This document shows positions 1-12,671 of a DNA stretch of 22,194 nt, piece after piece. The stretch's first letter is position 1; every line of letters starts with the position of its first letter. This DNA comes from a virus. The stretch lies in UHGV virus genome UHGV-0136179; one strand, 5' to 3'. Made by a program: the position numbers and the translations under genes. The notes beneath the pieces were generated by a model, which saw nothing but the letters and a program-made list of their open reading frames with translations, made no database searches and was not told the origin of the DNA.

Positions 1-40
1 TAAACCCTGTTTTCCTTGCCATAGACACCATCCCTGTCTT

Positions 41-67
41 CCCCCACATGATGTGGGGGTTTTTTTT
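41..67 (+). terminator. Rho-independent terminator: perfect inverted repeat CCCCCACAT-G-ATGTGGGGG followed by T8
   Basis: Read directly: hairpin 41-59, T-run 60-67. Lies in the att arm next to the int 3' end; likely terminates rightward transcription from flanking DNA. Confidence 0.6.
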
Positions 68-121
68 ATCAATCACTTACATCGGTTTCCGTAAGAAAAC
101 AGTAACTTAAGAAAACCTATA

Positions 122-130
122 AGGGACTGG
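122..130. promoter_or_regulatory. AGGGACTGG motif copy in the att arm (candidate Cox/excisionase-type site); AAGGGCTA follows at 131-138
   Basis: Same 9-mer recurs at 1634-1642 and inverted at 1602-1610 in the C/cox switch region. Confidence 0.35.
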
Positions 131-152
131 AAGGGCTACAAAGTTCTGAGAG

Positions 153-174
153 TGTGGACACTATGTGGACACTC
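153..174. repeat. Tandem direct repeats TGTGGACACT (153-162 and 165-174), candidate arm-type integrase binding sites
   Basis: Two identical 10-mers spaced 12 bp start-to-start, immediately next to the int stop codon in the att arm. Confidence 0.4.
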
Positions 175-185
175 AGAAGGGAAAT

Positions 186-1166
186 TTATAACGTCACTCC
201 GCCTTTTAGAGGATTCAGCGCGACGGCATTTTGCAGGTAGTCAGGCGCAAGGTGCGCATAGGCCATCGTCTGCTGAATGCTCGCATGTCCCAGAATCTGT
301 TGCAGTGCGATTATATTGCCCCCATTCATCATGAAATGGCTTGCGAATGTATGCCGCAGGATGTGGGTTGCCTGATTGGGTGGTATATCTGGCTTCACTC
401 TGCGTAAAATCCCGCAAAACTTCTCATAATCAACTTTGAATAATTTAGCGCTGGCCTCCTCTTTAACTTTTTTCTCCAGTTCCTCAGAAATCGGCACGGT
501 TCGCTTTTTACCGTTTTTGGTTTTCAGGAAGGTAACCCTGCAATTTGTAATCTGTGCTGGTTTTAGCGTGGCAACTTCCGTCCATCTTCCTCCAGTGCTC
601 AGACATAAAAGTGCGACAAGTAAGTCATCACCATCCAAAACATTTAACAGTTTTTCGATTTCTGCTTTTTCCAGGAACGTCATTTCAGGGTTGGCCTCCG
701 CCAGTGGCGGCAGTCCGTGAATTGGGTGTTGCCCGGAAAATTCATCCAGTTGAATTAATTTTGTGAACATGCCGGATAATCGGTACATGTCACGGTTTAT
801 CGTTGCGGCACTGATACCATCACGTAGTCGCATGGAACGATAATCCATCAAAGCTCTTTTGTTCATCCGGCTCACTGGTATATCACCTATGCCGCTGATG
901 GTTTTGAGCAGATGATTAAACTCTTTTGTTCCATGCTCGTGGTTTTGCCCGTGATATTTCCACCAGATGTCCAGCAACTCACTCAAAGTTCTGCGATCTG
1001 CTCGCTGACCTGCCCATTCTTTCTGGCTGGCGTAGGCGATTGTGTATCGCTCAAATGCTACAGCCTCAGCTTTTCTTTCAAATTTCCTGCGGATGCGTTT
1101 TCCGTCGCGACCGCGAGGTCTAATGTCCACTTCATAGCGTCCATCATCGAGCTTCTTAATTGACAT
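186..1166 (-). CDS. int: Tyrosine integrase (P2/186 Int family)
   Basis: ORF 186-1196; start at 1166 (MSIKKLDD...) preferred because GAGGG lies 8 nt upstream, whereas the ATG at 1196 has no SD. C-terminal HILRHTFASH ... MAYAHL fits the tyrosine recombinase catalytic region. First gene beside the att arm, divergent from cox. Confidence 0.9.
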   Translation of the reverse strand: MSIKKLDDGRYEVDIRPRGRDGKRIRRKFERKAEAVAFERYTIAYASQKEWAGQRADRRTLSELLDIWWKYHGQNHEHGTKEFNHLLKTISGIGDIPVSRMNKRALMDYRSMRLRDGISAATINRDMYRLSGMFTKLIQLDEFSGQHPIHGLPPLAEANPEMTFLEKAEIEKLLNVLDGDDLLVALLCLSTGGRWTEVATLKPAQITNCRVTFLKTKNGKKRTVPISEELEKKVKEEASAKLFKVDYEKFCGILRRVKPDIPPNQATHILRHTFASHFMMNGGNIIALQQILGHASIQQTMAYAHLAPDYLQNAVALNPLKGGVTL

Positions 1167-1235
1167 AAGAAAGCCCTCTGACGCTGTATTCACCATCTTG
1201 GTAACAAATGGTGAAAATGTAATGTTTATAGAGTG

Positions 1236-1529
1236 TTAACCAGTCTGTTTTTCGGAGTGGTCTGATTCTGTTGGTTTTTGCCCAATGTGTGCGAGAGCCG
1301 GCGCGATCTGACCAGCTTGTGGTGACGTATCACCAGTCATTAACCAGAGCGTATATTTTTTAAATAAAGGCGTATTTGTGACTCGCATAACGATGCTGAG
1401 ACCAGGGTCTTTATGCCCACTTTCGTAATTTTTGACTGTTCCTAGAGCTATCCCGCTAATTTCGCTGAATTTCGCCTGTGTTAAGCCTTCTGCTTTCCTA
1501 ATCGCTTTCAGTTTTTCGAATGTCTGCAT
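1236..1529 (-). CDS. C: Immunity repressor, P2 C-like (helix-turn-helix)
   Basis: 97 aa, close to P2 C (99 aa); HTH-like segment LTQAKFSEISGIALGTVKNYESG; sits between int and cox, divergent from cox. Confidence 0.85.
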   Translation of the reverse strand: MQTFEKLKAIRKAEGLTQAKFSEISGIALGTVKNYESGHKDPGLSIVMRVTNTPLFKKYTLWLMTGDTSPQAGQIAPALAHIGQKPTESDHSEKQTG

Positions 1530-1558
1530 TTGACAGTAACCTATTGGTGACTTATATT
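1530..1558 (+). promoter_or_regulatory. Early rightward promoter (Pe-like): -35 TTGACA (1530-1535), 17-bp spacer, -10 TATATT (1553-1558)
   Basis: Consensus sigma-70 hexamers with ideal spacing, oriented toward cox; an operator repeat lies in the spacer. Confidence 0.6.
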
Positions 1559-1585
1559 TCCGTCAAAAGGTTGTGTATTGGTGAC
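1542..1585. promoter_or_regulatory. Direct-repeat operator half-sites TATTGGTGAC (1542-1551 and 1576-1585)
   Basis: Identical 10-mers 34 bp apart flanking the -10 of the putative Pe; P2 C repressor binds direct repeats flanking the Pe -10. Confidence 0.5.
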
Positions 1586-1601
1586 CTTTTGGGTGTGTTA
1601 G

Positions 1602-1642
1602 CCAGTCCCTAGAAAGGACAGGGGCGACCTAGAAGGGACTGG
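1602..1642. promoter_or_regulatory. Inverted pair CCAGTCCCT (1602-1610) / AGGGACTGG (1634-1642), candidate Cox-type binding region in the switch
   Basis: 9-bp inverted repeat with a 23-bp spacer; the same 9-mer occurs at 122-130 in the att arm. Confidence 0.35.
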
Positions 1643-1681
1643 ATCTAATAAGGGTAACACGAAAGCAAAAAGGGCTAATCA

Positions 1682-1954
1682 ATGGAAGTCAATGACTATG
1701 TGATTCAGTACCCGATTGATGCGGTACATACGGTTAAGTTTGCAGAGTTACTTGGTAAGCCAGAAACGGCTGTAGTCAAGATGGTAAAAGAGAATAAATT
1801 GCCAGTTATTGAGCTTCGTGATCCAAGTAAGCCGAACGCTCGTGTCGGTGAGAAGTGGGTTTTCATTCCAGAGTTTAATCGCGCTGTACGAGAGGCGTTT
1901 TATAACCGACCAGTTGAACAGCGTGATGCATGGCTTTTGTGGATGGGGTTGTGA
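1682..1954 (+). CDS. cox: Cox-like excisionase / lytic-switch regulator
   Basis: 90 aa (P2 Cox is 91 aa), first gene of the rightward early operon, divergent from C; SD AAGGG 7 nt upstream; conserved C-terminal W..W.GL-like ending (WLLWMGL). Confidence 0.8.
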   Translation: MEVNDYVIQYPIDAVHTVKFAELLGKPETAVVKMVKENKLPVIELRDPSKPNARVGEKWVFIPEFNRAVREAFYNRPVEQRDAWLLWMGL

Positions 1955-11597: not shown

Positions 11598-12671
11598 ATG
11601 CGCCAGGAAACCCGCTTTAAATTTAATGCTTACCTGTCCCGTGTTGCCGAACTGAACGGCATCGACGCCGGTGATGTGTCGAAAAAATTCACCGTTGAAC
11701 CGTCGGTCACCCAGACCCTGATGAACACCATGCAGGAGTCCTCTGACTTTCTGACCCGCATCAACATTGTGCCGGTCAGCGAAATGAAAGGGGAAAAAAT
11801 TGGTATTGGTGTCACCGGCTCCATCGCCAGCACCACCGACACCGCCGGTGGCACCGAGCGTCAGCCGAAGGACTTCTCGAAGCTGGCGTCAAACAAGTAC
11901 GAATGCGACCAGATTAACTTCGATTTTTATATCCGCTACAAAACGCTTGACCTGTGGGCGCGTTATCAGGATTTCCAGCTCCGTATCCGTAACGCCATTA
12001 TCAAACGCCAGTCCCTTGATTTCATCATGGCCGGTTTTAACGGCGTGAAGCGTGCCGAAACCTCTGACCGCAGCAGCAATCCGATGCTGCAGGATGTGGC
12101 GGTCGGCTGGCTGCAGAAATACCGCAATGAAGCCCCGGCGCGCGTGATGAGCAAGGTCACTGACGAGGAAGGGCACACGACCTCTGAGGTCATCCGCGTG
12201 GGTAAGGGCGGTGATTATGCCAGCCTCGATGCACTGGTGATGGATGCGACCAACAACCTGATTGAGCCGTGGTATCAGGAAGACCCTGACCTTGTGGTGA
12301 TTGTGGGGCGTCAGCTACTGGCGGACAAGTATTTCCCCATCGTCAACAAGGAGCAGGACAACAGCGAAATGCTGGCCGCTGACGTCATCATCAGCCAGAA
12401 ACGCATCGGTAACCTGCCGGCGGTACGCGTCCCGTACTTCCCGGCGGATGCGATGCTCATCACGAAGCTGGAAAACCTGTCCATCTACTACATGGATGAC
12501 AGCCATCGCCGCGTGATTGTGGAAAACCCGAAACTCGACCGCGTGGAGAACTACGAGTCAATGAACATTGATTACGTGGTGGAAGACTACGCCGCCGGTT
12601 GTCTGGTGGAAAAAATTAAGGTCGGTGATTTCTCCACACCGGCTAAAGTGACCGCAGAGCCGGGAGCGTAA
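11598..12671 (+). CDS. N: Major capsid protein gpN
   Basis: 357 aa, identical in length to P2 gpN; AGGA SD; position after O. Confidence 0.9.
   Translation: MRQETRFKFNAYLSRVAELNGIDAGDVSKKFTVEPSVTQTLMNTMQESSDFLTRINIVPVSEMKGEKIGIGVTGSIASTTDTAGGTERQPKDFSKLASNKYECDQINFDFYIRYKTLDLWARYQDFQLRIRNAIIKRQSLDFIMAGFNGVKRAETSDRSSNPMLQDVAVGWLQKYRNEAPARVMSKVTDEEGHTTSEVIRVGKGGDYASLDALVMDATNNLIEPWYQEDPDLVVIVGRQLLADKYFPIVNKEQDNSEMLAADVIISQKRIGNLPAVRVPYFPADAMLITKLENLSIYYMDDSHRRVIVENPKLDRVENYESMNIDYVVEDYAAGCLVEKIKVGDFSTPAKVTAEPGA

Follow-up and report, generated by a model that had tools for sequence, protein, structure and literature searches.

A motif shared by the att arm and the C/cox switch of a WΦ-type prophage: candidate Cox boxes and a possible RNA stem-loop

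The analyzed stretch of DNA, hereafter the window, comprises 22,194 nucleotides (nt) of one strand of the virus genome UHGV-0136179. It contains a nine-nucleotide word, AGGGACTGG, which recurs in two regulatory regions, namely, the arm of the attachment site (att) and the switch between the genes C and cox, and which a first-pass annotation had proposed as a candidate recognition motif of the excisionase Cox. Bases 24–2400 of the window are 99.3–99.7% identical to coliphage WΦ and to a set of near-identical phages. The att arm (24–260) is identical to both WΦ records, and the switch differs from that of WΦ only by two single-nucleotide polymorphisms, at positions 1559 and 1592, both outside the motif. 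The region represents the WΦ att-int-C-cox module, and the prophage is inserted at the 3′ end of the gene cpxP.

Empty sites of E. coli match positions 1–70 of the window, and the match to WΦ attP begins at base 24; the common core is therefore 24–70 (47 nt). In E. coli W, cpxP directly precedes int, being the gene immediately to the left. Positions 1–70 (plus strand) represent the host cpxP 3′ untranslated region (UTR), the region yielding the small RNA CpxQ, with the 3′ end of this RNA and the terminator (stem 41–59, T-run 60–67). Since the core shared by attB and WΦ attP carries the terminator, integration rebuilds the 3′ end of the small RNA from phage DNA. A match to the Rfam family Hrs1 (RF02628; 51 bits, E = 1e-9) was found on the minus strand of 1–70, where truncation of the match at the edge of the window keeps its score under the gathering threshold. 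Relatives from Citrobacter, Kosakonia, Yokenella and Kluyvera make use of the same core 24–70. The boundary between the core and the P′ arm is straddled by TATCAATCACTTA (67–79), a perfect match to WATCAANNNNTTR, the consensus of integration host factor (IHF); the site is kept in most relatives. In P2, the annotated IHF site lies in the P arm.

The gene order is att, int, C and cox, with the promoters Pc, directed leftward to C, and Pe, directed rightward to cox, face to face, as follows from the open reading frames, the Pe consensus and the features of record AJ245959. The gene int (186–1166, minus strand) encodes a tyrosine integrase (PF00589, PF24624); the gene C (1236–1529, minus strand), the immunity repressor (HTH_3); and the gene cox (1682–1954, plus strand), a protein of 90 amino acids (aa), 100% identical to WΦ Cox. 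Promoter Pe (1530–1558, plus strand) is represented by TTGACA, a 17-nt spacer and TATATT, and corresponds to the promoter feature of AJ245959 at window positions 1528–1564. Promoter Pc (1646–1682, minus strand), also a feature of AJ245959, includes the −35 element TTGATT (reverse complement of 1677–1682) and the extended −10 element TGTTACCCT (reverse complement of 1651–1659). The C operator half-sites O1 and O2, two copies of TATTGGTGAC on the plus strand, are located at 1542–1551 and 1576–1585, 34 bp apart, and both the operator oligonucleotide sequences and the 34-nt spacing have been published (PMC1904263). The transcripts from Pe and Pc overlap by 82 nt, and O2 lies 60 nt from the Pc start (PMC1904263); from these distances and the annotation, the Pc start is inferred to be at about 1644–1646.

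Copies of AGGGACTGG were found on the plus strand at 122–130, in the att arm, and at 1634–1642, in the switch, and the reverse complement, CCAGTCCCT, is present at 1602–1610, separated from the second copy by a spacer of exactly 23 nt. The positions, the inverted orientation and the spacer had all been given correctly in the first-pass annotation. In the whole window, the 9-mer occurs four times against 0.07 expected, and four or more copies were reached in none of 100 shuffles. The fourth copy, unmentioned in that annotation, is located on the minus strand at 12008–12016, within the major capsid gene N (open reading frame 11598–12671), where it encodes ...KRQSLDF...; it is identical in WΦ and P2 at the homologous place. 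A regulatory role for this copy was rejected: it is part of the capsid reading frame, is the same in P2, and represents a coding coincidence. The three regulatory copies are absent from P2, and the complete WΦ genome contains the same four copies as the window and no further ones.

In a local test, the att arm (70–152) was compared with the switch (1565–1681) using dinucleotide-preserving shuffles. The longest word shared by the two regions is AAGGGACTGGA, of 11 nt; the probability of sharing a word of at least 11 nt was 0.008, and that of sharing a word of at least 9 nt was 0.09. The repeat also exceeds the 9-mer: CCTAKAAGGGACTGG, with up to three mismatches, was found only at 116–130, 1608–1622 and 1628–1642, in the form of CCTATAAGGGACTGG, CCTAGAAAGGACAGG and CCTAGAAGGGACTGG, respectively, the first of which matches the third at 14 of 15 positions. 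The statistics of the repeat on their own are moderate; its conservation in relatives makes it convincing.

In the att arm, the copy CCTATAAGGGACTGG (116–130, plus strand) includes the 9-mer and a predicted Cox box, att-1, AAGGGACTGG (121–130). A weaker predicted unit, att-2, AAGGGCTACA (131–140, plus strand), lies exactly 10 bp after att-1. The motif 116–140 is situated between the core and the integrase (Int) arm-type sites, two copies of TGTGGACACT (153–173, plus strand), and is 12 bp from the latter, which are conserved in all relatives and occupy the position equivalent to the Int P′ arm annotated in the P2 record. The same record contains an annotated Cox footprint (protein_bind) at the equivalent of the att motif position, flanked there by the core and by the Int sites of the P′ arm. 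The P′ arm also carries a perfect 9-bp direct repeat, TAAGAAAAC, at 92–100 and 108–116 (92–116, plus strand), possibly an accessory element for Cox or for bending.

The switch contains two direct repeats on the plus strand. The first, CCTAGAAAGGACAGG (1608–1622), has a conserved core, AAGGACAGG (1614–1622), which is the predicted distal Cox box. The second, CCTAGAAGGGACTGG (1628–1642), comprises the 9-mer, the predicted Pc-proximal Cox box AAGGGACTGG (1633–1642) and the right arm of an inverted repeat, the left arm of which is the inverted 9-mer copy (1602–1610, minus strand), proposed as the 3′ arm of a hairpin with which the Pc mRNA would begin. No other direct repeat was found in the switch, except for the C operators. 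Within these repeats, the 12-mers CCTAGAAAGGAC(AGG) and CCTAGAAGGGAC(TGG), at 1608–1619 and 1628–1639, match at 11 of 12 positions and are 20 bp apart. The second 12-mer includes six bases of the 9-mer, which is the same element read 6 nt rightward; AGAAA is common to the switch 12-mer and the TAAGAAAAC repeat of the att arm.

The 90-aa protein, which the first-pass annotation had described as Cox-like, is a member of the family Phage_Cox (PF10743; 83.5 bits, the cut-off being 27.5; E = 9.4e-24) and is homologous to the crystallized P2 Cox (PDB 4LHF; E = 2.5e-20 over residues 12–90). According to PMC5009727, where Ahlgren-Berg et al. 2009 is cited for these statements, WΦ Cox acts as a repressor of WΦ Pc and stimulates excision in vitro but does not activate P4; P2 cox-boxes, TTAAA(G/C)NC(A/C), are not bound by it, a 12-nt direct repeat in the Pe–Pc region being recognized instead; and non-specific DNA is bound cooperatively at higher concentration. 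Bending of att DNA by WΦ Cox and the formation of higher-order complexes on att are stated, with citation of the same work, in PMC7498355 and PMC11963761. With up to one mismatch, no P2-type cox-box was found in 70–152 or 1565–1681, which agrees both with the disregard of WΦ Cox for cox-boxes and with the earlier remark that the motif differs from the P2 cox-box. Since the switch has no other non-operator direct repeat, the published 12-nt repeat is, by elimination, CCTAGAAAGGAC/CCTAGAAGGGAC. A literature search with the motif strings returned no relevant match. The WΦ Cox operator is already published, and the 9-mer is its rediscovery from sequence alone, not a new motif.

For a comparative test, relatives with Cox 59–100% identical were taken from phage records, from one genome per species and from IMG/VR. 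The sample comprised about 50 distinct switch sequences and about 17 distinct pairs of att arm and switch, most with the same core. A distinct word for each lineage was found in both att and switch: AAGGGACTGG in WΦ and in a Kosakonia prophage, L014 (Cox 93% identical); AGTGGTTT in L-413C; AGCGGTTT in P37; A[AG]CCGTTT in three Buttiauxella-like lineages (L078, L099 and L018); and the 15-mer ATAAGCAGTTACAAG in Enterobacter phage T5282H. In P2, the word shared by att and switch is its cox-box. The unit types follow the variants of the Cox recognition helix, namely, VKMVKEN, SEMVKAN and TTMIEKN. In the Kosakonia prophage, the att copy corresponding to 116–130 is 100% conserved despite diverged flanks.

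The units are about 10 bp long and appear to be arranged head-to-tail, two in att and three in most switches, and a head-to-tail phasing of 10–11 bp has been reported for P2 cox-boxes (PMC3936717). Relatives contain a second att unit at the same place as 131–140, which covaries with switch unit 2. In the window, the units are spaced by 10 bp in att (121, 131) and by 20 bp in the switch, with a non-consensus middle unit; three consecutive units of 10–11 bp are present in L-413C, L017 and L077. In heteroimmune phages with WΦ-type Cox, the C operators are wholly different, yet CCAGTCCC, AAGGAC, GCGAC and GG.CTGGA are invariant. The CCTAG part of the 12-mer is variable in the WΦ-type group, and AAGGAC is invariant; the conserved core of the unit appears to be ARGGAC.GG, which is close to the 9-mer, and not CCTAG. 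The covariation supports Cox as the reader of the motif.

Nine further loci (L015, L016, L022, L023, L072, L076, L084, L090 and L094) contain WΦ-like Cox (59–81%) behind a different upstream gene, not of the C type, and are not homologous to the WΦ switch in the intergenic region. Recombination seems to combine Cox modules with repressors of other types.

The candidate status of the motif is thus supported by the identity to WΦ, the published Pe–Pc repeat, the position of the P2 footprint and the covariation between att and switch. The same data bear on two other explanations. The word could recur by chance in two purine-rich regulatory regions, without a shared function; the local probability of 0.09 for a 9-mer would allow this, and, as the gene N copy illustrates, unrelated causes can also give rise to the word. 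Chance is nevertheless highly improbable, as a shared word of at least 11 nt has a probability of 0.008, the 15-mer family is restricted to the att and switch sites, the motif is fully conserved in the Kosakonia prophage with its diverged flanks, sharing of words between att and switch occurs in parallel in at least five other Cox lineages, and Cox binding to the Pe–Pc repeat is published (PMC5009727). By the comparative data, this explanation is effectively refuted. Reading of the motif by Int, the C repressor or IHF, all of which bind in the same two regions, with an IHF-consensus site at 67–79, is just as hard to credit. The C operators are the two copies of TATTGGTGAC (PMC1904263), and the Int arm sites are the two copies of TGTGGACACT; heteroimmune relatives with different C operators retain the motif while their Cox is at least 93% identical; and L-413C, P37 and others, with the same core and Int arm sites, have different units together with a different Cox.

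We consider it likely that, in this WΦ-type prophage at cpxP, the direct-orientation copies are Cox boxes and the inverted copy is mainly an RNA-pairing partner. In this mechanism, Cox, a small winged-helix protein, would act both as a lytic repressor and as an excision directionality factor, reading a unit of about 10 bp, AARGGACWGG. The switch would contain two good units 20 bp apart (1613–1622 and 1633–1642), at approximately +3 to +33 of the transcript that runs leftward from Pc, which together would represent the published 12-nt imperfect direct repeat. Cox would nucleate on these units and spread cooperatively over the adjacent −10 and −35 elements of Pc, switching off C and int. In the P′ arm of att, one strong and one weaker unit (121–130 and 131–140), 10 bp apart, would be occupied; bound Cox would bend the arm and work with Int, so that excision would be favored and integration disfavored. 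The identity to WΦ, the positions of the motif, the covariation and the geometry come from the present comparison; Cox binding, repression and excision are taken from the literature; the box register, the spreading over Pc and the role of the hairpin are what we infer.

Several points weigh against this assignment of the boxes. The strong boxes lie downstream of Pc +1, not over the −10 and −35 elements as in P2, so that the promoter could be occluded only through spreading. In WΦ, the 10-bp unit between them, GGCGACCTAG, departs from the box consensus. The published 12-nt repeat was equated with CCTAGAAAGGAC/CCTAGAAGGGAC by elimination. Moreover, Ahlgren-Berg et al. 2009 reportedly describe the att element as a 9-bp repeat with only 5 bp in common with the switch repeat. 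Such an element would fit the two copies of TAAGAAAAC (92–116) as well as, or better than, the units at 121–140.

The word AAGGGCTA, which had been noted near both places, does occur at 131–138 and 1670–1677, but its part as a second word shared through Cox did not hold. Its recurrence is weak (0.29 copies expected; two copies reached in 1 of 100 shuffles). In the switch copy (1670–1677, plus strand), AAGGG (1670–1674) is the Shine–Dalgarno sequence of cox, 7 nt before the ATG at 1682, and the second coincidence therefore needs no Cox; purine-rich Shine–Dalgarno sequences were found at the same place in relatives. The switch copy also lies in the Pc spacer, adjoining the −35 element. On these grounds, AAGGGCTA was rejected as a second shared Cox word, and its att copy fits better as the predicted second Cox unit of 10 bp. 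A further candidate, AGGGTA (1651–1656), considered as a weak Cox box, was rejected as the reverse complement of the Pc −10 element.

The inverted copy at 1602–1610 is probably not primarily a Cox site. It would pair with the Pc-proximal box to form a stem-loop in the Pc (C-int) mRNA, at a distance of 1–4 nt from its 5′ terminus, and the same stem would also form in the Pe RNA; the copy would look like a Cox box because it must complement one. With the Pc start at about 1644–1646, both arms of the inverted pair fall within the overlap of the two transcripts, shortly downstream of Pc +1. The end of the annotated Pc feature is 1646 and the start of the arm 1642, so that the stem begins at a distance of 4 nt from the 5′ terminus of the predicted Pc 5′ UTR.

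In relatives, the left arm always complements the last 6–9 nt of the Pc-proximal unit, the arm pairs being CCAGTCCCT/AGGGACTGG, CCAGCCC/GGGCTGG, CCAACCC/GGGTTGG, CCAGCG/CGCTGG and CCACCTC/GAGTTGG. Since the spacer length varies, direct alignment with MAFFT mis-registered the left arms, and an arms-only alignment anchored on CCA and TGG was used. Stem pairs 1–6 are paired in 19–22 of the 22 distinct switches, and three pairs show compensatory double changes (GC↔AU, CG↔UA and CG↔GC/UA). The covariation score was 0.226 against 0.136 ± 0.018 in shuffles, none of 500 reaching it, and the register-slide control peaked at 0. The predicted stem energies in WΦ are −18.7 and −21.5 kcal/mol on the two strands, the stem being stable on both, and the folding z-scores over four lineages range from −2.1 to −5.8. 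The arm-to-arm span in relatives is 40–44 nt, and a minus-strand extended −10 element (TGnTAnnnT) is present 8–9 nt from the right arm in all 20 distinct relatives with enough downstream sequence. Changes in the arms without a counterpart in att were found in three loci, L021, L078 and L099, for example, att GGGGCTGG against switch GGGGTTGG/CCAACCCC in L021 and att CGTCTGG against switch CCGCTGG/CCAGCGC in L078.

A reading of the same arms without any role for RNA is that all copies in att and switch, including the inverted one, are Cox boxes, and that a symmetric operator is formed by 1602–1610 with 1634–1642 and with 1614–1622, on which Cox filaments would nucleate bidirectionally, in line with a proposal made for P2 att. 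The left arm is indeed a perfect copy of a box also present in att, P2 cox-boxes occur in both orientations (PMC3936717), and a change in Cox specificity would alter both arms; the change from T:A to C:G coincides with a K/E to E/A difference in the helix. We nonetheless regard the symmetric operator as unlikely, as the att units do not follow the arm changes in the three loci named above; L080 combines a helix of the L-413C type with A:T arms; the arm spacing varies by 4 bp, that is, about 140° of helical phase; the mirrored part covers only the 3′ 6–7 nt of the unit and not its AA start; and the arm position is locked to the Pc −10 element.

The stem-loop reading has points of its own against it. 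Only about 4–5 independent compensatory events were found, and a symmetric protein site co-evolving with its protein would also produce the covariation of the inverted arms. The counts of G·U and A·C pairs (6 vs. 8) do not single out the strand of the relevant RNA, and no Rfam family covers the switch. Among P2-type switches, sampled for independent covariation, nearly all 80 loci represent the P2 switch with scattered point differences only and offer too little diversity. We therefore propose only tentatively, with a confidence somewhat short of even, that 1602–1610/1634–1642 is a conserved RNA stem-loop, kept by compensatory changes in the WΦ-type switches of six or more genera of enterobacteria and located inside the 82-nt overlap with the Pe transcript. 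Such a stem-loop could stabilize the repressor mRNA, or it could be a kissing-loop entry for antisense pairing of the convergent transcripts. As regards the three copies that had been taken together as a Cox motif, the two in direct orientation retain this candidate role, while the inverted one is probably not explained by Cox alone.

A number of further features were observed around the inverted arms. A GATC (Dam) site (1642–1645) is located at the Pc start, directly after the right arm (CTGGATC), and is kept in most relatives. A second inverted repeat, CAAAAGGT/ACCTTTTG (1564–1571 and 1584–1591), of 8 bp with a 12-nt loop holding operator O2, begins at the predicted Pe +1; heteroimmune relatives retain an inverted repeat at the equivalent of 1564–1591 although the enclosed operator differs, and some relatives contain apparently compensatory variants there, for example, AAATGG/CCATTT and TGGTTTTA/TAAAACCA. 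Both convergent transcripts may begin with a hairpin. In a natural WΦ-immunity variant, represented by L036, L040 and related IMG/VR loci, AGGGGCTGG replaces AGGGACTGG in the Pc-proximal box (equivalent of 1638); no change accompanies it in Cox, in the left arm or, for L040, in the att box, and a U:A pair becomes U·G on the plus strand.

Inverted repeats were also found near Cox-type units outside the WΦ group. The IMG/VR loci L182–L185, with Cox 84–85% identical to P2 Cox, contain their own tandem 10-bp units, AGCCATTAGG and AGCCATTAGA, upstream of cox, and this region lies within an inverted repeat of 8 bp, GTGCTTCT/AGAAGCAC, the right arm of which comes directly after the units. An unrelated 6-bp inverted repeat, TAGTGC/GCACTA, is present at the Pc start of P2. 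The layout of boxes with an inverted repeat may be general.

The main result is a correct rediscovery and brings nothing new for the biology of P2-like phages. Two additions were made to it. The unit core ARGGAC.GG changes in parallel at att and Pc with the recognition helix of Cox, which provides a natural specificity series usable for decoding how Cox-family proteins read DNA. The inverted arm, in turn, behaves as a base-paired element locked to the Pc start. A literature search revealed no description of a stem-loop at P2-type Pc promoters; the hairpin is possibly new, the rest being already known. If the stem-loop is real, the lysis–lysogeny switch of WΦ-type phages would have an unrecognized RNA component: Cox would read the sequence of the Pc-proximal box in DNA, the complement of that sequence would recognize it in RNA, and an RNA layer would be added to a switch described only through two repressors and transcriptional interference.

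Among known systems, the closest is the Cox operator and att of WΦ itself (Liu & Haggård-Ljungquist 1999, J Virol 73:9816; Ahlgren-Berg et al. 2009, Virology 385:303), which is the same module with a 100% identical Cox and without biological difference. The system of P2 Cox is similar in the protein family PF10743, gene order, convergent Pe and Pc, cooperative oligomerization, location of sites both at Pc and in att, where they separate the core from the Int sites of the P′ arm, and the apparent spacing of units by about 10 bp. It differs in the sequence of the box and in the number of boxes, two good ones 20 bp apart here against six or more in P2; in addition, the strong boxes of P2 lie over −10/−35 and those of WΦ downstream of Pc +1, and P4 activation is absent from WΦ Cox, as stated in PMC5009727. 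Apl of phage 186 is likewise both an excisionase and a switch regulator, with direct repeats one helical turn apart at att and between pR and pL (PMC7498355). In contrast to Cox, Apl is a sequence outlier with seven operators at pR–pL, and its partners are CII and a repressor of the CI type. As for the predicted stem-loop, the nearest parallel is with the stabilizing 5′-terminal stem-loops of the ompA type in bacterial mRNAs, reportedly described by Emory, Bouvet and Belasco in 1992: the stem-loop predicted here is likewise located within about 1–4 nt of the predicted start of the Pc mRNA and is kept by compensatory change. Unlike the ompA-type structures, the stem here would also be present in the antisense Pe transcript and overlaps a predicted protein site, and its function is putative.

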